The notes beneath the pieces were generated by a model that had not been told where the DNA came from, ran no database searches, and saw only the letters and a list, made by a program, of their open reading frames with translations. From Phycisphaeraceae bacterium (lineage in GTDB: Bacteria; Planctomycetota; Phycisphaerae; Phycisphaerales; Phycisphaeraceae): DNA of 64,000 bases. Positions within the stretch are counted from its first letter, which is position 1; every line of letters begins with the position of its first letter. Below, in pieces: positions 208-64,000 of this stretch. The stretch is taken from positions 2,240,001-2,304,000 of the forward strand of contig OY771506.1 in NCBI GenBank assembly GCA_963674705.1. The letters are read 5' to 3'. The translations under genes were made by a program, and so were the position numbers.

Positions 208-1137
208 ATGCTGATCTATCGATCACTCATCGCGTTCATCGTCCTCGCCGTGGCGTATTCCGTGCTGCTGCCTTACACCGAAATTAACGGCTTCCGCCGC
301 GGCTCGCAGTGGGAGCTGAACGTCATGACCGCGGAAACCTTTGCCTATCAAAAGCCGAAGACTTCTGTCGTCGTCACCGGTTCCTCCATCAGCTACTGGC
401 TTAACGATCTGCCGGACGACTGGTACAACCTCGCCATGGCCGGTGAAGGCGCGCTGACCGGGCTATCCATCATCGACCAATCCGATCTCCAGCCGCACAC
501 CGTCCTCGTCGAGATCAACGTGATCGACCGACCTGTCAACGCTGATCTACTCACCGGCCTGTACGGCCCCGGCATCCGGCAAGCCAAGCAGCACCTGCCC
601 ATGCTCCAGGAGGCCAACGAACCCTCGCATGTCACGCTCCGCTGTATGCACCTGGCCGACTACTACGCAACTCGCATCGCCGAACGTCTCGGTTACGACC
701 AGCCCGATCCGTCACAATCATCGGAACCCAGCACAACCCCGATCAGGGAAACCGCCAAACTCGAATCCGGCGGCAACATCCTTCGCGCCATCCGCCTCGA
801 AGCCGTCAAGACCGGCTACGATGAATCCCTTCTCACCACCCGCCTGCACACCCTGCGCAGCCTTATCGAGAAACTCGAAGCCCGAAACATCCGTGTCGTA
901 CTTTTTGAAGCCCCGGAAGATGCCGCCACTTACGATTCACCCCGTCGAAACCAGTTGCGCCAGCTTACCCACCAGGTCCTCCCGGCCGACAGCTTCACCT
1001 ATCTCGACACACCGCTGGACCAGACCTACCAGACCCGCGACGGCGTCCACATGACCGCCGAAAGCGCCGCCCGCTACTGCCACTGGCTCGTCAACAACCT
1101 GCCCACCCCCAACACCCTCGTCTCCGCCTCACCCTGA
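208..1137 (+). CDS. SGNH-fold protein (DltD/AlgJ-like MBOAT partner)
   Basis: N-terminal TM helix, TGSS block I-like motif, YNLAMAG, C-terminal DGVH catalytic motif; directly follows the MBOAT gene. Confidence 0.65.
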   Translation: MLIYRSLIAFIVLAVAYSVLLPYTEINGFRRGSQWELNVMTAETFAYQKPKTSVVVTGSSISYWLNDLPDDWYNLAMAGEGALTGLSIIDQSDLQPHTVLVEINVIDRPVNADLLTGLYGPGIRQAKQHLPMLQEANEPSHVTLRCMHLADYYATRIAERLGYDQPDPSQSSEPSTTPIRETAKLESGGNILRAIRLEAVKTGYDESLLTTRLHTLRSLIEKLEARNIRVVLFEAPEDAATYDSPRRNQLRQLTHQVLPADSFTYLDTPLDQTYQTRDGVHMTAESAARYCHWLVNNLPTPNTLVSASP

Positions 1138-1190
1138 ATACACTCAGCACGGTCGGGCGACCCACGCCCAGCGCAGCGTGCAATGCACGG

Positions 1191-1339
1191 GCGCGCGAGC
1201 TGGCAGCTCGCGGCTACGGGAAGGTGTGAACGGCGACGTACGCGCTCATTGCTGTCTGTCGCTCAATAGCCGCGAGCTGCCCCCTCGCGCGAATCTCACA
1301 ATCACCCACCCCATAGCCGCGAGCTGCCAGCTCGCGCGC
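1191..1339. repeat. Cluster of three TAG/GTAG-type REP-like hairpins (TAGCCGCGAGCTGCCAGCTCGCGCG)
   Basis: Copies at 1191-1217 (minus), 1267-1291 and 1314-1339; related copy at 46598-46622. Confidence 0.8.
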
Positions 1340-1481
1340 ACCCTCGTGCAAATCTTTGCGCAAACTTCCACTCACCTCTGCACGAACTGATCCACACTCT
1401 TCTCACCCACACCCATCTGAACACCGTTCCCCTCACCCCCGATTCTCACTCCCAAACCCGTATCAGACCGATAAACTTCCC

Positions 1482-2660
1482 ATGGTGCGCTCATCGCACA
1501 TCCTGGAGCTGGCTGTCGTTGCGCTACTCGGTATCGCGGTCATCATGGTCAACTCGGCCGGCGCCCGCGTGGGCTCACCCGACCCGGATCATGCGGGTCT
1601 TGTCGCCGGGACGACGCAGATTCTTACAAGCCGGCCCATCATCTACGCCGTATTGGCGATCGGTGTCATGATGCTGGCCAGCCGGATCAACGTTCGCCAG
1701 CTCTTTGCCGTCCGTGGCTGGACCAATCCGCTCGCCTTCATCATCGTCGGGGCACTGACGCTGGCAGCGCTCACGCTCGTGCCCGGTATGGGTAAAAGCG
1801 TCAACGGCGCCAGCCGCTGGCTGTACCTGGGCCCGAAAAGCTGGGGCCTGAGTTTCCAGCCAAGCGAACTGGTCAAGTGGGTCATGGTCATCGCCATCGC
1901 CTGGTGGTGTGCACGCCGGCGCGGCCTGATGCACACCTTCCGCCACGGCCTTGTCCCGCCGCTGATTCTGCTGGGCATCGCCTGCTTCATCGTCGTCATC
2001 GAAGACCTTGGCACGGCCGCCCTGATCGGACTCGTCGCGGTCTGCATGCTCATCGCCGGCGGCGCTCGCATCAAACACCTCGCGTGCATCGTCCCGATAG
2101 GCATGGTCGGCCTGGTCGCGGCCCTCTTCCATAGCCCGTACCGTATCAAGCGATTGATCGCCTTCCTCGATCCCTGGGCCGATCCCGAGGGCGCGGGCTA
2201 CCACCCGATCCAGTCCATGCTCGCCGTCAGCCAGGGCGGGCTCTCCGGCAGGGGACTGGGCCACGGCATCCAGAAGTTCGGCTACCTGCCCGAAGACACC
2301 ACCGACTTCATCTTCGCCATCATCTGTGAAGAGATGGGCATCGTCGGCGCAGCCGTGATCGTCTGTCTCTTCCTGGTGATCCTCTGGGTGGGTCTGGGCA
2401 TCGTCCGGGACTGTAAAGACACGTTTGGCCGGCTCGTCGGGCTGGGTGTTTTATTAACGGTCGGTCTTCAGGCCGCGATTAACATCGCCGTCGTCGTCGC
2501 CGTCGTCCCGACCAAGGGCATCGCACTACCGCTGGTCAGCTCCGGCGGCACGGGCTGGATCATGACTGCTTTTGCCTTGGGTTTGGTCGCCGCACTCGAT
2601 AACGCCAACTACCTCGAAGCCGAGGAAGAACTGGAAGGCCTCGTCCTCGAACCCGCTTAG
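1482..2660 (+). CDS. ftsW: FtsW/RodA/SpoVE SEDS-family peptidoglycan glycosyltransferase
   Basis: NGASRWL, FQPSEL, DLGT, GYLPEDTTDFIFAIICEE, LPLVSSGG motifs; ATG at 1482 preferred over the ORF-track start 1356. Confidence 0.9.
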   Translation: MVRSSHILELAVVALLGIAVIMVNSAGARVGSPDPDHAGLVAGTTQILTSRPIIYAVLAIGVMMLASRINVRQLFAVRGWTNPLAFIIVGALTLAALTLVPGMGKSVNGASRWLYLGPKSWGLSFQPSELVKWVMVIAIAWWCARRRGLMHTFRHGLVPPLILLGIACFIVVIEDLGTAALIGLVAVCMLIAGGARIKHLACIVPIGMVGLVAALFHSPYRIKRLIAFLDPWADPEGAGYHPIQSMLAVSQGGLSGRGLGHGIQKFGYLPEDTTDFIFAIICEEMGIVGAAVIVCLFLVILWVGLGIVRDCKDTFGRLVGLGVLLTVGLQAAINIAVVVAVVPTKGIALPLVSSGGTGWIMTAFALGLVAALDNANYLEAEEELEGLVLEPA

Positions 2661-2720
2661 CGCGCTTACAGAATCCAACGATTTATTATCACCGCCATTT
2701 TCCCCAGCAACCCGACTTAC

Positions 2721-2750
2721 TCAAGCCTCAAGTCTCTAGCCTCAAGCCTC
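2721..2750. repeat. Heptamer tandem repeat (TCAAGCC)n
   Basis: tcaagcc tcaagtc tctagcc tcaagcc in the ftsW-MFS spacer. Confidence 0.75.
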
Positions 2751-2838
2751 ACCCCCAACTACACACAAGACCTCATTCTATTTATACTGACGGAGACATC
2801 TGAATACCCCCACACCACTTGGAAAGGCCTTGCGTACC

Positions 2839-4458
2839 ATGACTTCAGCCCCCTCGTCTGTTTCTGCGCCCTCGTCGGCACTGATTCCCGTTCGTTATCA
2901 GGTGCTCATCGGGGCCATTATCGTCCAACTCATCCTCGGCACGGTGTACGGCTACAGCATCTTCTGGCAACCGCTGCACGCCGAGGTCTTCCCGCAGGTG
3001 ATCACTCAGGCCGAGAAAGCCACGATGATCGCCGACAGTATCGATACGTCCGGCATGACGGTCGTCGCCGATGCCGAGGCTGTGAAGGCGCAGCTTGCGA
3101 CACAGCAGGGTTATCTCAAGTACGCGTTCTCGATCTGCATCCTGTCATTTGCGATCACGATGATCTTTGCCGGACGCGTGCAGGACGTGCGGGGGCCTAG
3201 ACAACCGGCGATCATCGGCGCGGTCCTGATGGGATTGGGATTTCTTGCCGCATCGTTTATGAATTACCCCTTCGTGTTTTTCATGACACACGCGATGCTC
3301 ACTGGCGGCGTCGGCCTGATCCTGCTGTTGATCTTTGATGCATTGCTGGGTGGACATGAGACGGTCCGGGAGAACCCGATGCTCCGATACGTGCCGCAGG
3401 CGATCATCATCGCTGTCGCCGTTGCGGGTGTTACCACCGGCACGCAGTTTGTCGGCAAGCTCGGAGCGGTCGACAAGATCTTTATGCTTTGGGCGACGGT
3501 TGGCTTCCTCGCAGGTGCCGGTATTGGTTTCGCGTACGTCTGCCCGATCGCGGCTCTATACAAGTGGTTCCCCAATGCCAAAGGATTGGTCGGCGGTATC
3601 GCGGTCGCGGGCTTCGGTTTTGGTGCATACCTTTTCACAAACAAGACCATCGGTGCGGTTGGTTACATCATGGACCACGGGATCACTGACTTTTTCCTGG
3701 TTCATGGATTGGTCTGCCTGGTTGCCGTGACCTTCGGCGCCTTACTGCTTCGGAATCCTCAAAGTGTTGCAGCACCCAGTGCCGCTGGTAGCAGCAGCGA
3801 TTCAACGTGGCGTGACACACTCAAGAAACCTTCGTTCTACATGCTCTGGCTCATGTTCTTCTCCGGCGCCATGGCGGGCCTGATGGTCATCGGCATCATC
3901 AAGGGATTTGCCGGCGACCAACTGGTCTCGGGTGCCAAAGCTGCCGCTGATAGTGCGGGCAAAGTGCTCAGTGATGTTGAGATAGACGAGTGGAAACAGA
4001 AGGGTGTTGCGGCGGTCGGTGCACTGGCGATCTTCAATGCGATCGGTCGTATTGTCTGGGGCCTGGTTTCTGACAAGGTTGGCCGCACCTTAGCCATGAT
4101 GACTATGTTCATCTTCCAGGCGATCACGATGTGCGTCTTGACCCTGGCAACGAACGAATGGTCCATCGCCGTTGTTGCCTGCATCGTTGGTTTCAACTTC
4201 GGCGGTAACTTTGCCCTGTTCCCCTCGGCGACCGCTGACCTCTTCGGGGCGAAGAACGTCGGCGCCAACTACGGCTGGGTCTTCACCAGCTACGGTATCG
4301 CAGGCGTCATCGGGATCGCGGCGGGTAATATGGCCAAGCAACAGACCGGCAATTATGAACCGGCGTTCTACGTCGCCGCCGTTCTGTGCGTGATCTCCGC
4401 TGTCCTCGCCATCGCCCTCGGTAAATCAATCGCCAAGGCCAAAGCCGCCGCAGCATAA
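2839..4458 (+). CDS. OFA (oxalate/formate antiporter-like) MFS transporter
   Basis: LGTVYGYSIF, KWFP..KGLVGGIAVAGFGFG, FNAIGRIVWG, TADLFGAKNVGANYG motifs; multiple TM helices. Confidence 0.85.
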   Translation: MTSAPSSVSAPSSALIPVRYQVLIGAIIVQLILGTVYGYSIFWQPLHAEVFPQVITQAEKATMIADSIDTSGMTVVADAEAVKAQLATQQGYLKYAFSICILSFAITMIFAGRVQDVRGPRQPAIIGAVLMGLGFLAASFMNYPFVFFMTHAMLTGGVGLILLLIFDALLGGHETVRENPMLRYVPQAIIIAVAVAGVTTGTQFVGKLGAVDKIFMLWATVGFLAGAGIGFAYVCPIAALYKWFPNAKGLVGGIAVAGFGFGAYLFTNKTIGAVGYIMDHGITDFFLVHGLVCLVAVTFGALLLRNPQSVAAPSAAGSSSDSTWRDTLKKPSFYMLWLMFFSGAMAGLMVIGIIKGFAGDQLVSGAKAAADSAGKVLSDVEIDEWKQKGVAAVGALAIFNAIGRIVWGLVSDKVGRTLAMMTMFIFQAITMCVLTLATNEWSIAVVACIVGFNFGGNFALFPSATADLFGAKNVGANYGWVFTSYGIAGVIGIAAGNMAKQQTGNYEPAFYVAAVLCVISAVLAIALGKSIAKAKAAAA

Positions 4459-21020: not shown

Positions 21021-22739
21021 ATGGGAATGCTTGGCACCTTACAGATCGGCAAATCGGGGCTGCTCGCCTCGCAGGCGGCGCTACAGGTGGTGGGCAACAA
21101 CCTGGCGAACCTGGCGACGGAGGGGTATCACCGCCAGAACATCACGCTTGAGCCGGAGACGGCGCAGCAGATCGGGCCGGGGATGTTCATCGGACGGGGC
21201 GTGACGATCCAGTCGATCACACGCGCAGCGGATGAGGCGCTGGAAGCGCGGCTGCGCAATGCGATCTCGGATGAGGGCGCGGCGGATGTACGCCAATCGT
21301 TGCTCGGGCGGATCGAAGCGATCCAGAACGAATTCACGGACACGGACCTGTCGACGATTATGTCGGAGTTCTTCAACGCGTTCAGCGAGTTGTCGAACAA
21401 CCCGCAGGATATGTCGCTGCGATCGATGGTGATCGAGCAGGCGGGGACGCTGACGTCGTTTATCCGCGAGCTTGATTCGAACCTGGGCAGCATGGAGCAG
21501 CAGACGATCGCGCAGATCGATCAGACGACGGCGACCGCGAATGATCTGCTGAACCGGATCGCAACGTTAAACCAGCAGATCAGCGTACAGAGCCGGGGCT
21601 CGGGCGGCGCACCTTCGCTGCGCGATCAGCGTGACGCGCTGCTGGCCGAGTTGTCGCAGTACATGGATATCTCGACGGTCGAGCAGGAAAGCGGCTCGGT
21701 CGATGTGTTTGTTGGTTCGCTGCCGATCATCTTGAACAGCACCAACCGGGGGATCGAGGTTGTCAACAAGAGCATCGACGGCGAGACGGTGACGCAAATC
21801 GTGATCTCCGCGGACAAGAGCCCGTTGGACCTGACGTCCGGCGAACTCGGGGCGTTGATCGAATTCAAGGAAGGGGATATCAAGGACGCGATCGGCGCGG
21901 TGGACGAGCTTGCCTCGCAATTGATCTGGCAGGTGAACCGTCTGCACTCACAGGGCCAGGGTACGGAGCTGTTGGATGGCGTGACGACGGCTTCGTTGGT
22001 GAGTGATCCGACGTTGACGCTGGACGATCCGGACAATGGGCTGGCGTTTACGCCGCAGCACGGTTCGTTCCAGTTACACGTGATCCAGCAGTCGACGGGG
22101 CAGGTGGTCACGACGACGATCGATATCGACCTGGACGAAATCAATCCGGCGACGAATACGACGCTGAACTCGCTTGCGGCAGATATCAATGCGGTAGCGA
22201 ATGTGACGGCGTCGGTGAATGCGGCGGGGCAGATCGTGATCGATACGGGCACCAGCGACTTCCAGATCGCGTTCGGCGACGACACGTCGGGTGTTCTTGC
22301 GGCGCTTGGGATCAATACGTTCTTCACGGGTAAGGATGCGTTTGACATCGATGTGAACACGGTTGTGGAAGAGAGCCCGGGCCTGATCGCCGCGGCATAT
22401 TCCGGGCCGGAGGGTGCGAACCCGGGTGATAACAGCGTGGCGCTGTCGATCGCGTCGTTGCGTGATGACGGGTTGGACGATCTGAACGGCCTGAGCCTGA
22501 CGGAGTACTGGAGCCGACACGTCGGCGACTTTGCGGTGCGTCGGGCGCAGTCGCGTGAGGAGCTGGCGTCGACGACGGTGATCCGTGAAGGATTGGCGAC
22601 GCAGCAACAGTCGGTTTCGGGTGTGAACGCGGATGAAGAAACGATCGACCTGATCATGTACCAGCGAGCGTACCAGGCGAGTGCGCGGCTGCTGACGGTG
22701 ATTGATGAATTGATGCAGACATTGATGGCAGCGGTTTAG
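21021..22739 (+). CDS. flgK: Hook-associated protein FlgK
   Basis: GNNLANLATEGYHRQ, LRDQRD, SVSGVNADEE...YQRAYQASARL. Confidence 0.93.
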   Translation: MGMLGTLQIGKSGLLASQAALQVVGNNLANLATEGYHRQNITLEPETAQQIGPGMFIGRGVTIQSITRAADEALEARLRNAISDEGAADVRQSLLGRIEAIQNEFTDTDLSTIMSEFFNAFSELSNNPQDMSLRSMVIEQAGTLTSFIRELDSNLGSMEQQTIAQIDQTTATANDLLNRIATLNQQISVQSRGSGGAPSLRDQRDALLAELSQYMDISTVEQESGSVDVFVGSLPIILNSTNRGIEVVNKSIDGETVTQIVISADKSPLDLTSGELGALIEFKEGDIKDAIGAVDELASQLIWQVNRLHSQGQGTELLDGVTTASLVSDPTLTLDDPDNGLAFTPQHGSFQLHVIQQSTGQVVTTTIDIDLDEINPATNTTLNSLAADINAVANVTASVNAAGQIVIDTGTSDFQIAFGDDTSGVLAALGINTFFTGKDAFDIDVNTVVEESPGLIAAAYSGPEGANPGDNSVALSIASLRDDGLDDLNGLSLTEYWSRHVGDFAVRRAQSREELASTTVIREGLATQQQSVSGVNADEETIDLIMYQRAYQASARLLTVIDELMQTLMAAV

Positions 22740-22818
22740 CAGACGAAAGGATTGTTGCCGTGAGCGATCACGGTCAAGCGTAAGTGGGGTAATTAACCCG
22801 ACACGGGCCTAGAAGAAC

Positions 22819-24768
22819 ATGGCTACCACACCAGCCTTATCCCGGACGACCTCGTTGATGCAGGGCAACCTGATGTTGTCGCGTCTGCGTCAAACGAACT
22901 CGAGCATGTACGATCTGCAGCGGCAGATCAGCACGGGCTTGAAGCAGTCTGTGCCTTCGGACGATCCCAGCGCGACTAGCGGGATCATGTTCCTGCAGGA
23001 CGCTTTGTCTTCCCGGAGCCAGTACCAGAGCAATCTGAATCACGCGTTGGCGGTATTGAACGACATCGACCAGGCGCTGGGTGAGTCGAACAATATCCTG
23101 GTTGAGTCGCAGACGATCGCATCGAGCCTGATCAACGCCAGCACGGAGGAGCGCGAGGCCGAGGCTTTGGTGATCGATGCGCAACTTCAGGCGATGATGG
23201 ACATCGGCAACCTTCAGCTTAACGGTCTGTCGATTTTTGGCGGCAACGCCGGGGCGGCTGATAACGGTCTGATTTTCGAGGCATTTCTCGGCGGCATCCG
23301 TTACACGGGGTCGGATGAAAATCTCGCCGCCGACTCGGGCGTGTTGGAAGAGTATGCGTTTACGAGTAACGGTGTCGAAGCGTTTGGCGCACTGAGTGCG
23401 CGGGTGGCATCCATTATTGATCTGGACCCCGACGCGACGGTGGATACGAAGATCAACACGCTCGATGGCGTGAAGAGTCTGGGCGTTACACTGGGTGAGG
23501 TGAGTCTGACGGTTGATGGCACGCAGGTCATGGTGGACCTGAGCGATGCGAACACGCTGGGCGACGTACTTTCCCGACTCAACCTGGCGATCGACGACAT
23601 CAATCCCGCCGCGGGCTGGCTCGCTTTGGGTACGACGGGTTTTGAGCTGACCAACACCGCCGGCCACACGATCGTGATCGATGACATTGGCAACGGCCGG
23701 GTTGCGACCGATCTGGGCCTTGAATTGACCGCTATCCAACCCGGCGGTGTCACACGCTTCGGTGGCGACGTGCAACCACGACTCACACTCACTACCGAAC
23801 TGTCGGACCTCGGCCCGGCGATCGACTTGGCCAGCGGCCTGCTGATCACGCAAGGTGAACAAACACGCACGGCTGACTTCTCCTCGGCGAACACGGTTCA
23901 GGACCTGGTCAACGAGATCGATCGTTTGCAACTTGGATTACGGCTTGAGATTAACGATGAGGGCACCGGGTTGAACCTGGTCAGCGAGGTCAGCGGCATC
24001 AGCCTGTCCGTCGGGGAGAACGGCGGGACGACCGCGAGCGACCTGGGCATCAGGACTTATGGCCCGAACACATCGCTCTCCGACTTCCGTAACGGTCTTG
24101 GCATCGAGCCGATCACCGGGCAGGACGACATGCTGTTCACGGTAAACAACGGCATGAGTTTCGGTGTCGACGCGTCGGGGCTCGGGACGGTGGATGAGTT
24201 GATCACGGCGATCGAGGACGCGGCGACCGCGGCCGGACTGACGGTGGGCGTCAACTTCAGCGTGGACTACGTCAGCAGCGGCAACGGACTGGTGTTCACT
24301 GACAACACAGCCGGCATCAATGGATTCACGATCGAGCGTGTAGGTGAGAGCCTTGTGGCGGACCAGTTGGGCATGCTCAAGGAAGACGGCACCGCGCTAA
24401 CGTTCACCAGCAGTGATGAAGCGATGGTGCGTGTGGAGAATGTTTTTACACATTTAACAGATTTACGTGATGCATTACTAAATGATGACACGCTTGGCAT
24501 CACAATTGCTGCAGGCAAGTTGGATGTGGACACCCAACAGGTGACCCAGGCCCGCGCAACAGTCGGTGTGAGGGCTCAAAGAGTAGAGCGACAGATAGAG
24601 CGCTCAGAGGATTTAAAGCTCATGGAAGAAACAATGCTCAGCGATTTGCGGGACGCGGACCTGACGGAAGTCATCACGCGTTATTCGCAGCTACAAGTTG
24701 AGCTACAAGCTTCACTGCAGATCGGTGCGCAAAACCTGCAGTACAGCCTTTTGGACTTCTTGCGTTAG
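22819..24768 (+). CDS. flgL: Hook-associated protein FlgL (long form)
   Basis: QISTG..PSDDP N-terminus; flagellin-like C-terminus SDLRDADLTE...SLLDFLR. Confidence 0.88.
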   Translation: MATTPALSRTTSLMQGNLMLSRLRQTNSSMYDLQRQISTGLKQSVPSDDPSATSGIMFLQDALSSRSQYQSNLNHALAVLNDIDQALGESNNILVESQTIASSLINASTEEREAEALVIDAQLQAMMDIGNLQLNGLSIFGGNAGAADNGLIFEAFLGGIRYTGSDENLAADSGVLEEYAFTSNGVEAFGALSARVASIIDLDPDATVDTKINTLDGVKSLGVTLGEVSLTVDGTQVMVDLSDANTLGDVLSRLNLAIDDINPAAGWLALGTTGFELTNTAGHTIVIDDIGNGRVATDLGLELTAIQPGGVTRFGGDVQPRLTLTTELSDLGPAIDLASGLLITQGEQTRTADFSSANTVQDLVNEIDRLQLGLRLEINDEGTGLNLVSEVSGISLSVGENGGTTASDLGIRTYGPNTSLSDFRNGLGIEPITGQDDMLFTVNNGMSFGVDASGLGTVDELITAIEDAATAAGLTVGVNFSVDYVSSGNGLVFTDNTAGINGFTIERVGESLVADQLGMLKEDGTALTFTSSDEAMVRVENVFTHLTDLRDALLNDDTLGITIAAGKLDVDTQQVTQARATVGVRAQRVERQIERSEDLKLMEETMLSDLRDADLTEVITRYSQLQVELQASLQIGAQNLQYSLLDFLR

Positions 24769-24828
24769 TAAGCGCAAGGCTTGCGCTACCCGCCGGCGTT
24801 ACGGCCAGCGGCGGGTAACGGTAGATGG

Positions 24829-24898
24829 CGGCAGGAGCCGTCAACCCGGGTCGGAGGCCCGGGCTCGGAAATCCAGGACGGACGGCCGTGTTTGAGGA
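24829..24898 (+). promoter_or_regulatory. Putative CsrA-binding GGA hairpins in the fliW leader
   Basis: cggc-AGGA-gccg, cccgggt-CGGAG-gcccggg, tcc-AGGAC-gga, plus GAGGA SD. Confidence 0.55.
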
Positions 24899-24906
24899 CT
24901 GTGGTC

Positions 24907-25356
24907 ATGTTGATCAATACCTCGCGATTCGGTGAAGTGGACGTGGACCAGACCCGCATCATCAGCTTCCCCAAGGGGCTGCTTGGCTTTCCGAAGTACA
25001 GGCAGTTCGTGCTGATCGAGGCCGGCGAAGACAGCTACTTCTGGTGGCTGCAATCGATCGAGCTTCCTGACCTGGCGTTCGTGGTCACGGACCCGAGCCT
25101 GTTCGTGCCGACCTACAAGGTCCCGATGAAGGCCGAGCAGATGCAGGAGATGGGCCTGGAGTCGCTGGCCGACGCCCAGGTGTTTGTGATCGTGAACAAG
25201 CGCGGTCAGGTCCTGACCGGGAACCTGCAGGGGCCCCTGGTCATCCACTGCGGCAAGCGTGTCGGTGAGCAGTTGGTCTTAAGCGATCGGCGTTTCACGA
25301 CCCGTGTTCCTCTGATCGAGCTGGGCGCCCCGGCGGTTACGGCGGCCTCGGCCTGA
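24907..25356 (+). CDS. fliW: Flagellar assembly factor FliW
   Basis: MLINTSRFGEV, FPKGLLGF, WLQS..LAFVVTDP, TGNLQGPLVI. Confidence 0.93.
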   Translation: MLINTSRFGEVDVDQTRIISFPKGLLGFPKYRQFVLIEAGEDSYFWWLQSIELPDLAFVVTDPSLFVPTYKVPMKAEQMQEMGLESLADAQVFVIVNKRGQVLTGNLQGPLVIHCGKRVGEQLVLSDRRFTTRVPLIELGAPAVTAASA

Positions 25357-25439
25357 ACCTCGCCGGGCCTTGAGTGTGCGGGTTCGGCTAAGAGAAGACG
25401 TGCATTGAATACGAACGTGAACAACAGCGAGACGCGCAC

Positions 25440-25480
25440 GCCGCAAGGATGCGGCAGCTACGCGACAAGGCCCAAGGAAG
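25440..25480 (+). promoter_or_regulatory. Putative CsrA-binding sites in the csrA leader
   Basis: gccgc-AAGGAT-gcggc hairpin followed by CAAGGAAGGAG at the SD. Confidence 0.65.
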
Positions 25481-25492
25481 GAGCCCGAACCA

Positions 25493-25753
25493 ATGCTGGT
25501 TCTATCGCGTCAACGCGACGAGACGATCATGATCGGCGACGAGATCGAGATCACGGTCGTGGATATCCGGGGGGACAAAGTGAGGCTGGGAATCTCCGCG
25601 CCCAGGCAGGTCCAGGTGCACCGCAAGGAGGTCTACGAGGCCATCCAACGCGAGAACACGTCAGCCACCCGGGTCCAGGTCGACGACCTGAACACTGCGG
25701 ATCAAAACCTGCGAAAGCACAACGGCAAGCCGCCGGGTGCACGCCAACCATAG
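25493..25753 (+). CDS. csrA: Carbon storage regulator CsrA
   Basis: MLVLSRQRDETIMIGD...VRLGISAP..VHRKEVYEAIQREN, with the C-terminal extension typical of FliW-regulated CsrA. Confidence 0.96.
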   Translation: MLVLSRQRDETIMIGDEIEITVVDIRGDKVRLGISAPRQVQVHRKEVYEAIQRENTSATRVQVDDLNTADQNLRKHNGKPPGARQP

Positions 25754-25864
25754 ATCGAGGCCTAGCCTCAGCGTGGCGAGGGCCTGTCACCCAAGCCGGT
25801 TTCCCGGATTTTTAACACGATGTGTACTTCTCGCCGGCAACAAACTAAGCACGGCGAATGACCG

Positions 25865-25884
25865 GACAATCAAGGAGGATTGTC
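25865..25884 (+). promoter_or_regulatory. Hairpin presenting the flagellin SD (AAGGAG) in its loop; putative CsrA site
   Basis: Perfect GACAATC/GATTGTC stem ending just before ATG 25886. Confidence 0.7.
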
Positions 25885-25885
25885 A

Positions 25886-27355
25886 ATGACACGGATCAAC
25901 ACCAACGTTTCTTCGCTGATAGCCCAGCGTAACCTGGCCAAGACCAATGATGACCTGAGCACCAGGCTGCAGCGGCTGAGCACGGGTCTTCAGATCAACC
26001 GCGGAGCGGATGACCCCGCCGGCTTGATCGTCTCTGAACGCTTGCGGACAGAGATCTCCGGCGTCGGGCAGGCTGTGGACAACATCGAACGTGCCAGCAA
26101 CGTCATCGCGACCGCCGAAGGCGCTCTATCGGAAATCAGCGACCTGCTGATCTCCATGAAGAGCCTCGTGGTGGAAGCGGCGAACACGGGCGCCTTTTCT
26201 GATGATGAAATCAAGGCCAACCAGTTGCAGATCGACTCGGCCATCGACTCGATCACACGTATCGCCAACACCACCAGTTTCGCCGGCCTCAAGCTGCTCA
26301 ACGGCTCGCTGGACTATGTCCACCAGGGCCTGACCGCCAGCCAGATCAGCGACGTCAAGATCACCGGCGTGAACTTCGGCACCAACTCAACGTTGCCGGT
26401 CACCGTCGAAGTGCTCAACTCCGCTGAGACCGCGACGATGTACATCTCCGCCGCCAATCCGGCGACCGGATCGACGATCCTCTCCAGCATCAACTTCTCC
26501 ATCGCGGGGGTTAATGGTGTGGAGGTCTTCGAGTACGTCTCCGGTACGAAGCTGTCGGCGATCGTATTCGGTTTGAACGCGGTGTCCGACGCCACGGGCG
26601 TCTCTGCATCGCTGGTGAACACCTCTGCGATCCAGATCAACAGCCTGTCGTTTGGTTCGGAAAATTACGTTTCGGTCAAGAAGCTCAATAACGAAAACCA
26701 GAGCTTCCGCGTCGTGGACGCACTGGGCGGTACGGAAATCAACCGTGATGAAGGTGCGGACGTGCTGGCACTGGTCAACGGCAACCTCGCGCTGGGTGAC
26801 GGCCTTGATGTGACCCTGCGGACAACCTCGTTGAGCCTGGAACTGTCGCTGACCTCCGGGTCCGCGCAGACACTCAATACGCCTTACACCTTCACGATCA
26901 CCGGCGGTGGGGCGACCTACCAGATCGGCCCGAGCATCAACAGCCAGCAGCAGATCGGCTTCGGCATCCAGTCCGTGGCCGCGAACAACCTCGGCAACTC
27001 GGTCGTCGGCTACCTCAGCAGCATGAAGAGCGGCGGCTCCAACTCGCTGGTGCAGGGTTCAGACCCGGCCGACCAGGCCAGGATGGCTGCGGATGTACTC
27101 GACGAATCGATCGACCAGGTCTCGATCCTCCGAGGCCGACTCGGCGCCTTCGAGAAGAACACGTTACAGACGACATTGCGAAGCTCGCAGATCGCGATGG
27201 AGAACCTGACGGCTTCCGAAAGCGACATCCGCGACACCGACTTCGCCGAAGAGACCGCGAAGTTGACACGTGCCCAGATCCTGCAGCAGGCAGGCACGCA
27301 GACACTGGCGATCGCGAATCAGAACGCCTCGAACGTACTAGCACTGCTCGGCTAA
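25886..27355 (+). CDS. fliC: Flagellin
   Basis: RINTNVSSL, RLSTGLQINRGADDPAGL, LRGRLGAF, SESDIRDTDFAEE, QILQQAG. Confidence 0.95.
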   Translation: MTRINTNVSSLIAQRNLAKTNDDLSTRLQRLSTGLQINRGADDPAGLIVSERLRTEISGVGQAVDNIERASNVIATAEGALSEISDLLISMKSLVVEAANTGAFSDDEIKANQLQIDSAIDSITRIANTTSFAGLKLLNGSLDYVHQGLTASQISDVKITGVNFGTNSTLPVTVEVLNSAETATMYISAANPATGSTILSSINFSIAGVNGVEVFEYVSGTKLSAIVFGLNAVSDATGVSASLVNTSAIQINSLSFGSENYVSVKKLNNENQSFRVVDALGGTEINRDEGADVLALVNGNLALGDGLDVTLRTTSLSLELSLTSGSAQTLNTPYTFTITGGGATYQIGPSINSQQQIGFGIQSVAANNLGNSVVGYLSSMKSGGSNSLVQGSDPADQARMAADVLDESIDQVSILRGRLGAFEKNTLQTTLRSSQIAMENLTASESDIRDTDFAEETAKLTRAQILQQAGTQTLAIANQNASNVLALLG

Positions 27356-61829: not shown

Positions 61830-61990
61830 ATAAGAGCCAAGCCCGGATACCGTCTGCTGGAGGGGAGAGCCAGGAGGGAGAGGAATCGTGGCCGGTCCCC
61901 GGGCAAGGATGTGGTGGCAGTGTTGTCACCACGGGACGGGGAGAAAGATACGCACCCCGGTAGAAACCGGCCGGGGTGCTGTTTTTTTTG
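61830..61990 (+). ncRNA. Candidate CsrB/RsmZ-like GGA-rich small RNA
   Basis: 9 GGA trinucleotides in 61845-61942, short hairpins and a plus-strand terminator, with no credible CDS; 5' end uncertain. Confidence 0.45.
61952..61990 (+). terminator. Strong intrinsic terminator on the plus strand
   Basis: gcaccccgg/ccggggtgc stem followed by TGTTTTTTTT. Confidence 0.85.
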
Positions 61991-62063
61991 TACTTGTAGC
62001 GGCCGTGTATTTTGAAACGTCAATCAGCAACGGGGCGCGACTAATGGTTGCGGCCTTGCACGG

Positions 62064-62810
62064 TTATGTGTTTTTGAGGATGTCCAGATAGGCCTTGACG
62101 GTAGCAGTCATTCCGAGTTCAAGCGCATCGGCGATCAGTGCGTGGCCGATGGATACTTCCATGATGTTGGGGATGGTGACGAATCGGCCGAGGTTATACA
62201 GGTTCAGGTCATGTCCCGCATTCATGCCCAGTCCCAGATCGGTGGCGCAGGCGGCCGCCTCAGCAAATTTTTTGTATTCATTTTCCAGAACGTCGCCGCC
62301 TTGCTCATATGCGACGGCGTAGCTCTCCGTGTACAGCTCGATCCGATCGGCGCCGGTCTGAGGAACAAGTTTAATCTGCTGCGGATCCGGGTCCATGAAC
62401 AGGCTGACCCGGCAACCTAGTGACTTCAGTTCATCTACGATCGGTTTGAGACGCTCGAGGTTGGATGCGATGTTCCAGCCGTGGTCCGAAGTGGACTGAT
62501 CCGGTGAATCAGGCACCAGCGTGCATTGGTCGGGCTTCACGTTACGGGCGTGGTTCATGAATTCGCCTAGAAACGGGTTACCTTCGATATTGAATTCCCG
62601 GCCGTGGTATTCCGGTTCGGCCAGGAGTTTGGCGATGTCCCCGACATCGTGATGACGGATATGTCGCTCATCTGGTCTGGGGTGCACCGTGATGCCGGCG
62701 CTACCGGCTTGCAGTGCGAGTCGGGCCGAATGGACGACGTTGGGAGTGTCACCTTGCCGTGCATTACGTAAAAGTGCGACTTTATTGACGTTTACGCTCA
62801 GGAGAGTCAT
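62064..62810 (-). CDS. pdxJ: Pyridoxine 5'-phosphate synthase
   Basis: LSVNVNKVALLRNAR, ITVHPRPDERHIR, QCTLVPD, RIELYT, NAGHDL, EVSIGHALI. Confidence 0.96.
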   Translation of the reverse strand: MTLLSVNVNKVALLRNARQGDTPNVVHSARLALQAGSAGITVHPRPDERHIRHHDVGDIAKLLAEPEYHGREFNIEGNPFLGEFMNHARNVKPDQCTLVPDSPDQSTSDHGWNIASNLERLKPIVDELKSLGCRVSLFMDPDPQQIKLVPQTGADRIELYTESYAVAYEQGGDVLENEYKKFAEAAACATDLGLGMNAGHDLNLYNLGRFVTIPNIMEVSIGHALIADALELGMTATVKAYLDILKNT

Positions 62811-62953
62811 GTATTGATTACCAGTGGACCAAGAATGTAGAAAATAACTGAATTATAAAGGGGGGTGGACTTGTAAACCTGTATTTAAGTCCTGTTATCG
62901 TATCGTGATGGTACGATTGTGTCTCAAACGTTAGAAAATCAGATTGATTTATC

Positions 62954-62982
62954 TTTACTTTTAGTGGGACCCGGGATAGAGT
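62954..62982 (+). promoter_or_regulatory. sigma70-like promoter upstream of the structured RNA
   Basis: TTTACT-N17-TAGAGT preceded by an AT-rich tract. Confidence 0.55.
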
Positions 62983-62988
62983 GATATC

Positions 62989-63222
62989 AGTAGTGTAGAG
63001 GCCGACCGGGATGACCGGCCCCCGTGGTGCGGCTTGCTGATGCGAGCCAAACGGTGAGGTCGACCGGACCGGGCCAGCGAGACGGCCCAACGCAACGAGC
63101 GAAGGGCTGAATGGTGAAGCCGGCCGTGTAGTGCCGAGTGGTTCCTGCCGATAAGGGGTTGCGTCAAGCAACAGGGACCCAACCGACGCTGTGCGGCCGG
63201 TCCTTATTGGCAACGACCCCCT
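62989..63222 (+). ncRNA. Unassigned highly structured RNA candidate
   Basis: GC-rich island in an AT-rich spacer; several G-U-containing stems and a likely pseudoknot; promoter directly upstream. Confidence 0.55.
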
Positions 63223-63327
63223 TCAATCAATCATCCCGATCTATGCGATACAAGTACGGGTGCGATTTGTTGAACGTTGTAGTAACTGATTCGAGGTAAA
63301 ACGTTTCTGGCAGATCAGGGCGAAGTT

Positions 63328-63729
63328 ATGACCATCATTTGGAAACAGGGATATACCACGGGTTCACCGGAGTTGGATCAGCAGCACCGGGAAATGTTCG
63401 ACATGCTCAACAAGCTGGAGGACATGATTGCTCAGGGGGTCTATGAAGGGCCGAAGGTCGACGCACACCTCAAATCATTGGGCACGTATGTCACGCGTCA
63501 CTTCAGCGACGAAGAGTGCTGCATGGAAAAAGCGCAATGCCCGATGGCCCAAAAGAACAAGCAAGAGCACGAACAGTTCCTTAACAAGTATGTTGAATTA
63601 ACTTCAAAATTCAGCAAGCATCGATCATTACAATCGCTCAAAGAAGTCCATAGCTGGGCGGAATCCTGGACCCATGAGCATATTGCCTTTCTCGACATTC
63701 ATCTGAGAACGTGTATCAACCGGGGATGA
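63328..63729 (+). CDS. Single-domain bacteriohemerythrin
   Basis: W...YTTG..ELDQQH, HFSDEECCM, KQEHEQF, HEHIAFLD; one of the His ligand positions appears to be Asn (QKNKQEH). Confidence 0.85.
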   Translation: MTIIWKQGYTTGSPELDQQHREMFDMLNKLEDMIAQGVYEGPKVDAHLKSLGTYVTRHFSDEECCMEKAQCPMAQKNKQEHEQFLNKYVELTSKFSKHRSLQSLKEVHSWAESWTHEHIAFLDIHLRTCINRG

Positions 63730-63918
63730 GGGTAATCCCTCGCATTTGGATGAAGTCGGCTAGCCAGAACCACGATATAGGTTAGGGTCATCGGACGGTT
63801 GGCGTCCGATAGTACGTGATGGCTGTACGCCTTGCGTTGCGTGCCGCTTGGGTACTTCTACTACTTTGTACATGGTGAATTGGGCCAATCGTATACGGAC
63901 CTGTGCAAGGGGTAGCTG

Positions 63919-64000
63919 ATGTCTGTGCTGGATAGTTACAGATTAAATTCGCTTGGCAGGTTCATCGTGCGCTGGCGCGCGGCATTGCTGGTCGCATTGC
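63919..64000 (+). CDS. Start of a possible membrane protein (truncated by the window edge)
   Basis: AAGGGG SD, then MSVLDSYRLNSLGRFIVRWRAALLVAL... Confidence 0.35.
   Translation, partial: MSVLDSYRLNSLGRFIVRWRAALLVAL

Follow-up and report, generated by a model that had tools for sequence, protein, structure and literature searches.

In enterobacteria, GlmY and GlmZ are paralogous sRNAs of about 150-200 nt that have in common one irregular helix recognised by a protein, and one of the two can be a decoy. In the ligands of FinO/ProQ-domain proteins, such as FinP and RocR, the protein docks on the 3' terminator hairpin with its U tail, and the 5' part is separate. The CsrB/RsmY/RsmZ sponges are stand-alone, multicopy sRNAs with their own promoter and terminator. 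The locus analysed here, called type A, lies near the end of the window, as we call the whole stretch of 64,000 nucleotides that was analysed. It is a conserved, structured non-coding locus and one of three paralogues in its genome (G000). It is very probably a functional structured RNA element, and there is a good likelihood that the family to which it belongs acts in trans. Very few sRNA families have been annotated in this region of the tree; one review gives eight Rfam sRNA families for the entire PVC group (PMC9029176). In the literature on sRNA, structured RNA, CsrA, Hfq and 6S RNA in Phycisphaera and Planctomycetes we found no such RNA described, and candidate-motif supplements could hold it. 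Apparently, this is an undescribed modular small-RNA family of Phycisphaerales, in which type A is specific to one genus.

The type A element occupies the spacer between pdxJ on the minus strand and a hemerythrin gene on the plus strand, with the following features in window coordinates.

62064..62810, minus strand: pdxJ (pyridoxine 5'-phosphate synthase; PF03740, E 1e-84), divergent and upstream, a synteny marker that adjoins 8/8 type-A loci
62954..62982, plus strand: predicted sigma70-type promoter, -35 TTTACT at 62954-59, 17 nt, -10 TAGAGT at 62977-82
62989..63208, plus strand: predicted small RNA, type A, about 215-220 nt, both ends deduced (promoter, U-rich tail)
63202..63208, plus strand: 3' tail CCUUAUU, a weak U-tract and predicted terminator end
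63328..63729, plus strand: single-domain hemerythrin gene, the downstream neighbour (PF01814 in 8/8 type-A loci)

The initial annotation had proposed a structured plus-strand non-coding element with its own promoter, TTTACT-N17-TAGAGT, in a GC-rich block within an AT-rich spacer, and the analysis supports this picture. The GC content is 68% in the element block, 37% upstream and 46% downstream. The promoter lies where it had been placed, and the motifs TCTTTAC and TA.AGT are unchanged in all eight type-A orthologues, with a spacer of varying sequence between them. A consensus promoter scan left the site at 62954-62982 unlisted, just under the tool's own threshold, and our promoter picker always returns a best site (far-upstream picks in 5/32 rows), so that the promoter claim rests on the alignments. 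The proposed extent, 62954..63222, was right at the promoter but too long at the 3' end, since the conserved element stops near 63201-63208. The terminator scan called zero sites in the window region of the type A tail; within type A, the six more distant orthologues have runs of 3-7 U at this place, and in the other two types and other genera the run is mostly 4-8 U long. Because the tail is weak in the window species, transcription there may plausibly run on into the hemerythrin gene in some cases. A contig of a public run, which may be the window's own source, equals the stretch with zero differences; the two runs compared were contigs of a single study and confirm the DNA only. Two neighbouring features were also seen. 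A CHASE-domain sensor gene starts just past the hemerythrin gene (window 63919-64000; L082:2305-3096) and runs off the window. The spacer behind pdxJ (61840-61990) is GC-rich and purine-rich, with a strong hairpin and a U-tract at 61957-61990; an open frame across it is similar in G004, and it may hold a small RNA or a terminator.

BLAST found type A homologues in seven of ten congeners, that is, with the window copy, in eight of the 11 genomes of the genus, and only two short matches besides these outside the genus. All eight copies sit between pdxJ and the hemerythrin gene, with lengths of about 200-310 nt, and their alignment has 96 invariant columns. In its RNA columns, type A shares 70-78% identity with six congeners, where four-fold sites of pdxJ are 36-43% identical, so that silent sites of this gene are mostly saturated; for the closest congener the values are 93% and 71%. 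This comparison points to purifying selection on type A. Long insertions occur at helix ends, and loop and wobble positions stay fixed, a pattern that would fit a structural or protein-bound RNA. In G002, G003 and G005 (L013, L014, L015), the 5' domain or the apical loop is extended by long G-rich hairpins, up to about 90 nt, that carry repeated GGGGAAAC-like units.

RNAalifold, unprompted, folded type A into a 5' interrupted helix (P1-P3), a hairpin (P4) and a long 3' helix, as listed here.

63000..63075, plus strand: 5' domain from RNAalifold, with P1 63000-03/63072-75, P2 63006-09/63064-67 and P3 63016-20/63058-62
63021-63057, plus strand: variable insert closed by P1-P3, up to about 90 nt longer in some orthologues
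63083..63109, plus strand: P4 hairpin of 6 bp, a tandem purine (AA/GA) internal loop, 3 bp and a variable loop
63119..63201, plus strand: shared 3' module, with a 15-bp G-U-rich stem, a C.A mismatch, 2 bp, a 2x2 loop (AG/AC) and UGG/CCA
63134-41 (CCGAGUGG) and 63179-86 (CCAACCGA), plus strand: core of the 3' helix in the 20-sequence alignment, with UGG/CCA at 63139-41/63179-81
63142..63178, plus strand: variable apical part of the 3' module, predicted to be mostly unpaired

The window fold has a z score of -2.31, and 3/200 shuffles were equally stable. The proposed fold pairs in 99% of cells across the eight orthologues. Covariation from type A alone is modest (2/44 pairs changed on both sides, 14/500 shuffles): P1 is invariant in sequence and therefore shows none, P2 is shorter in G003 and G005, and P4 retains 9/9 pairs in 8/8 copies, with one compensatory change and four one-sided changes. 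In the apical part of the 3' module, the G run at 63155-58 (GGGG) is invariant in 8/8 copies. The nine helices listed in the initial annotation all pair fully in the window, and its 15-bp stem (63119-33/63187-201) is conserved with 15/15 pairs in 8/8 orthologues, but four others pair much less well across the orthologues. The helices 63031-37/63042-48 and 63022-25/63051-54, which fall in a variable, poorly aligning region, and 63071-75/63084-88 reach, together with a proposed pseudoknot, only 64% of cells paired, with zero covariation. Among 500 shuffles, helices of at least 8 bp arose in 498, at least 11 bp in 126 and at least 15 bp in one, so that only the 15-bp stem is beyond chance by itself.

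The pseudoknot, an 11-bp pairing of 63146-56 with 63202-12, forms 11/11 pairs in the window and 7, 5, 5, 3, 5, 2 and 3 of 11 elsewhere. It had been put forward together with a resemblance to the double T-loop of T-box stem I and RNase P. The defining features of a T-box include the AGCGA of the AG bulge, the stem I apical loop and the UGGNACC bulge (PMC11404447). AGCGA occurs in 4/8 type-A copies, GGUG in 4/8 and both in 2/8; their bases form P4, whose 3' arm overlaps AGCGA, and a variable linker. The antiterminator bulge UGGNACC is absent, as the initial annotation had itself stated: type A reads UGGUUC (UGUUUC in G010), and these bases pair within the 3' helix. The gene for RNase P RNA lies at another place in the genome (rnpB, RF00010, at G000:3526071-582, 269 bits), and the type A locus has no RNase P match. 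We regard a tRNA-binding RNA or ribozyme built on the pseudoknot and a T-box-like double T-loop as extremely unlikely for type A: the motifs and the 11-bp pairing do exist in the window, but the pseudoknot and the two motifs together are limited to it and, partly, to its closest relative. As judged from the orthologous sequences, the pseudoknot and the T-box-like features are accidents of the window's species.

The 3' helix is shared beyond type A. In 20 diverse members, whose alignment was fitted to the covariance model, 94% of its cells are paired and 11/20 pairs changed on both sides, a result reached in 0/500 shuffles. An independent MAFFT alignment of 12 members showed such changes in 6/22 pairs, and none of 500 shuffles reached its covariation score. 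In the distant members the UGG/CCA register is preferred; the helix then runs almost without a break over about 23 positions, with the C.A mismatch and the 2x2 loop. Within the G000 genome, 13,238 loose motif pairs were found, and the full 14/14 outer stem in two places only, type A and paralogue B. The stem base GCCGRCC/GGYCGG is also present in ordinary terminators of this lineage, so the similarity of the paralogues may be partly convergent, and what argues for homology is the length of the helix, its inner core and the layout of promoter plus 5' domain. GCCGAGUGG may resemble tRNA D-arms, and the helix, by its length, RNase III substrates.

The two paralogues, which the initial annotation had missed, were found by different routes. 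Among 301 genomes searched with the pattern GACCCAACCGACGCTGTG at 2 mismatches, 80 matched, mostly by chance judging by 30 inspected loci, and this search revealed paralogue B. A covariance model of the 3' helix uncovered the third type, C.

G000:C1:1558811-1558946 (L006:1400-1535), plus strand: paralogue B, about 135 nt, flanked by a CAAX-protease gene and, in convergent orientation, a 2H phosphoesterase gene
G000:C1 about 1321880-1322050 (L113:1444-1605), minus strand: paralogue C, about 155 nt, with a core that has diverged in G000

Paralogue B has TTGACT-N16-TAGATT upstream, an 8-U tail and the 3' helix in common with type A, with compensatory changes. Type B was found in 5/11 genomes of the genus, and the convergent 2H phosphoesterase beside it was Pfam-checked in G000 and G007. 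Type C is present in 11/11 genomes and has an invariant 13-nt segment with a C-rich loop, which includes an anti-Shine-Dalgarno-like CCCUC, in 10/10 aligned copies; it is a candidate base-pairing RNA. The canonical core of type C is eroded in the five genomes with type B (partly in G010) and intact in the six where B was not found, which are 76-94% complete. This split hints at a shared, redundant function and may be a single evolutionary event. Promoter-like hexamers are conserved at fixed distances in all three types. The 5' domains differ among family members and mostly fold as a closed multi-hairpin unit. In two type-B copies and in five other genera (7/32 rows) the helix is preceded, at a distance of 18-27 nt, by a UACG/UACA motif; given this occurrence in other genera, the ancestral form may have been most like type B.

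Across the family of Phycisphaeraceae genomes, the third model matched 25/144, and 20 were accepted, namely the 11 of the genus and G025, G030, G031, G075, G141, G184, G242, G261 and G317. G166, G195, G341 and G096 were dropped for their plain-terminator look and G321 as uncertain; the model matches G111 and G338, which also look like plain terminators, were dropped as well. One genome of the sister family, G045, has a clear copy. The members come from 11 genera of two families and keep both the length of the helix and its internal core; each carrier has 1-3 copies. In the class and phylum samples (150 genomes each), the accepted matches were G000 and G045 only. Among weak class matches of 30-33 bits, G441 and G465 were read as plain terminators after genes, and only score and length were used to discard G469 and G370. 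In the genome_contigs collection, a pattern scan gave 11 loci, 10 of which score 60-80 bits and are titled Phycisphaeraceae (8), Planctomycetota (1) and uncultured bacterium (1); the other, L131, was rejected as coding sequence. Of 19 loci in metagenome_contigs, two are real (L140 and L149, both type C) and 17 were rejected. Viral contigs gave 0 loci with the first pattern and 120 with a loose one, of which 100 were scored (best 20 bits) and none accepted, and the plasmid and phage collections gave zero matches to the family. Per genome, the searches scored about 30-35 out of 500-3300 first-look candidates, and the model missed type C in G000. As far as found, the family appears to be confined to one planctomycete order, Phycisphaerales, a range that is a lower bound because few candidates per genome were scored.

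One may ask whether the shared 3' part is simply an intrinsic terminator that has become longer, or what remains of a small mobile element, with no common function. The stem base shared with ordinary terminators, the patchy distribution (20/144) and two near-identical copies in G184 would fit, but length and core of the helix are kept over all those genera with compensatory changes, promoter-like hexamers and a folded 5' domain accompany the copies, the UACG/UACA motif recurs ahead of the helix both in type B and in the five other genera, copy number is low and the plasmid and phage collections gave no match. We give this explanation little credence. The two copies in G184, both with promoters, are on separate contigs (L096, L108) and reflect a recent duplication or an assembly effect.

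The initial annotation had named a riboswitch-like leader upstream of the hemerythrin gene among its readings. The position was correct in all eight type-A loci, but the leader reading is weakened, because the 3' helix recurs beside unrelated or convergent genes. Neighbours across genera are indeed unrelated (trpF and aroA, ddl and FKBP, flgM, a PEP-CTERM protein, a glycosyltransferase, an esterase), and in type B, G317, G141 and G075 the next downstream gene runs convergently, which makes a leader role impossible for these copies. The switch was to work through an alternative 8-bp pairing, 63013-20/63195-202, that keeps 6-8/8 pairs; this is not evidence for switching, because other helices already hold both arms, and helices of this length are the rule in shuffles. 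A cis leader (riboswitch or attenuator) of the hemerythrin and CHASE genes that uses this pairing would also agree with the same-strand gene downstream, with the weak U tail in the window species and with G006 (L023:2200-2640), which is without the type A RNA and without hemerythrin residues 1-70, residues 71-133 remaining. On the other hand, the linkage to hemerythrin may be plain within-genus synteny, because pdxJ is linked just as tightly, and the part that defines the family is the 3' helix rather than an aptamer-like 5' part. We regard a cis leader as quite unlikely. Since 5' domains and neighbours differ and several copies face convergent genes, trans action is the likely mode of the family.

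The view that the element belongs to no known Rfam family was confirmed by covariance-model searches with Rfam 15: the best E value in window 62000-64000 was 5.6, the whole window had none at the gathering score, and 17 loci holding family members had 0 matches at E<=1. The window gave no match to tmRNA, tRNA (ARAGORN) or SRP RNA (RF00169); in G000 the tmRNA is at G000:4163111 and the SRP RNA at G000:4083760. Regarding tRNA genes of this genome, 30 form an array of about 12 kb on the minus strand, beyond the window (G000:C1:622407-634804), and ARAGORN called two tRNA-SeC genes (G000:C1:708446 and 1821572).

A divergent 6S RNA had also been suggested, and a 6S-like gene is located elsewhere: the sole RF00013 match in G000 (3994574-692, minus strand) scores 36 bits against a cut-off of 46.4, with a long helix and a central bubble by eye. 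Type A lacks the 6S rod with a central bubble; its consensus fold has three separate domains, and its 5' and 3' ends do not pair with each other. Several bacteria carry more than one RNA polymerase-binding RNA. A second such RNA with a 6S or Ms1-like role and a non-canonical fold would be consistent with the length of about 200 nt, the long irregular helix and the conserved sigma70-type promoter, but the locus does not match the 6S model, the 6S-like gene lies elsewhere and the ends do not pair around a bubble, which makes this role very unlikely.

As for protein partners, Hfq was not found in G000, the only genome searched for it, nor was Ro60/TROVE in G000 (96.6% complete), and the end pairing of Y RNA is also absent. 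ProQ, RapZ and SpoVG were each found in 0/144 family genomes. CsrA has three gene matches over the cut-off in G000. One of these genes is in the flgK-flgL-fliW-csrA-flagellin cluster of the window (21021-27355; named from translations and the CsrA match), and the two others stand alone elsewhere in G000 (L274:1716-1931; L275:1817-2113). GGA is not enriched (3 versus 5.8 expected in type A, 50 versus 58 over 12 representatives, 1/32 rows with p<0.05) and is almost all paired in type C; a CsrA sponge was rejected on these counts.

Alternatively, the members may be base-pairing regulatory sRNAs, whose 5' or apical single strands pair with mRNAs and whose 3' helix merely terminates and stabilises. 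The invariant CCCUC loop of type C and the exposed G run retained in type A speak for it. Type A, however, has no long conserved single-stranded seed, and the target set of the type C loop is not clear: it has 11 perfect complements in G000, one at its own locus and only about two just before ATG, and a reversed control gives 6. Moreover, Hfq and ProQ were not found, as described, and the predicted pairing between paralogues (-1.5 to -12.5 kcal/mol) gives an inconsistent signal. We consider base pairing as the common function unlikely, though worth keeping in mind.

Our preferred reading, held tentatively and at somewhat less than even confidence, is a stand-alone sigma70-transcribed RNA in which the 3' helix is both terminator stem and family-wide protein dock and the 5' domain is paralogue-specific. 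Transcription by sigma70 polymerase would start from about 62989 and terminate at the U-rich tail, and the terminator stem would be the base of the 3' helix itself. A protein may recognise the helix core (C.A mismatch, 2x2 loop, UGG/CCA), and the 5' domain would give each paralogue its own role as decoy or scaffold, so that trans action would go through the protein docked on the shared 3' helix. A bolder version, which we hold to be improbable but not negligible, is that these are modular ribonucleoprotein RNAs of a new class, in which the two-turn 3' helix recruits a new chaperone and interchangeable 5' domains set each job. If this were true, the C-rich loop of type C would pair with mRNA and types A and B would be decoys or scaffolds; it would mean an sRNA regulatory system on a new chaperone, in bacteria for which the searches described above turned up none of Hfq, ProQ, RapZ, SpoVG and Ro60. 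With the usual sRNA partners not found in G000 or the family, a covarying family of three paralogues that share one helix is a bait for the RNA-binding protein that would take their place, and one constant module with three different 5' domains offers a natural comparison. The narrow distribution limits general interest for now, and expression is predicted only.

Compared with known systems, type A resembles T-box stem I in the AGCGA and GGUG strings of the window, but these co-occur in few orthologues, the UGGNACC bulge is absent and the neighbours are not amino-acid genes. It resembles 6S RNA (RF00013) in a length of about 200 nt and a long irregular helix, but its domains are separate and do not make up a single rod around a central bubble, and it has no model match. 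With the CsrB/RsmY/RsmZ sponges the family has in common the multicopy state and the layout of promoter and terminator, in a host with three CsrA genes; it differs from them in showing no enrichment of GGA and in conserving a long helix where the sponges have GGA loops. The ligands of FinO/ProQ proteins are similar in the 3' hairpin and U tail as dock and in the separate functional 5' part, as proposed here; in contrast, the ProQ/FinO domain was found in 0/144 genomes, and the helix here has about 23 bp with a conserved internal core. GlmY and GlmZ are likewise paralogous structured sRNAs with a shared irregular helix and otherwise differing parts. They differ in that there is no sequence or Rfam match, RapZ was found in 0/144 genomes and Hfq not in G000; and, in comparison with that pair, the shared helix here is 3' terminal and the paralogues are three.
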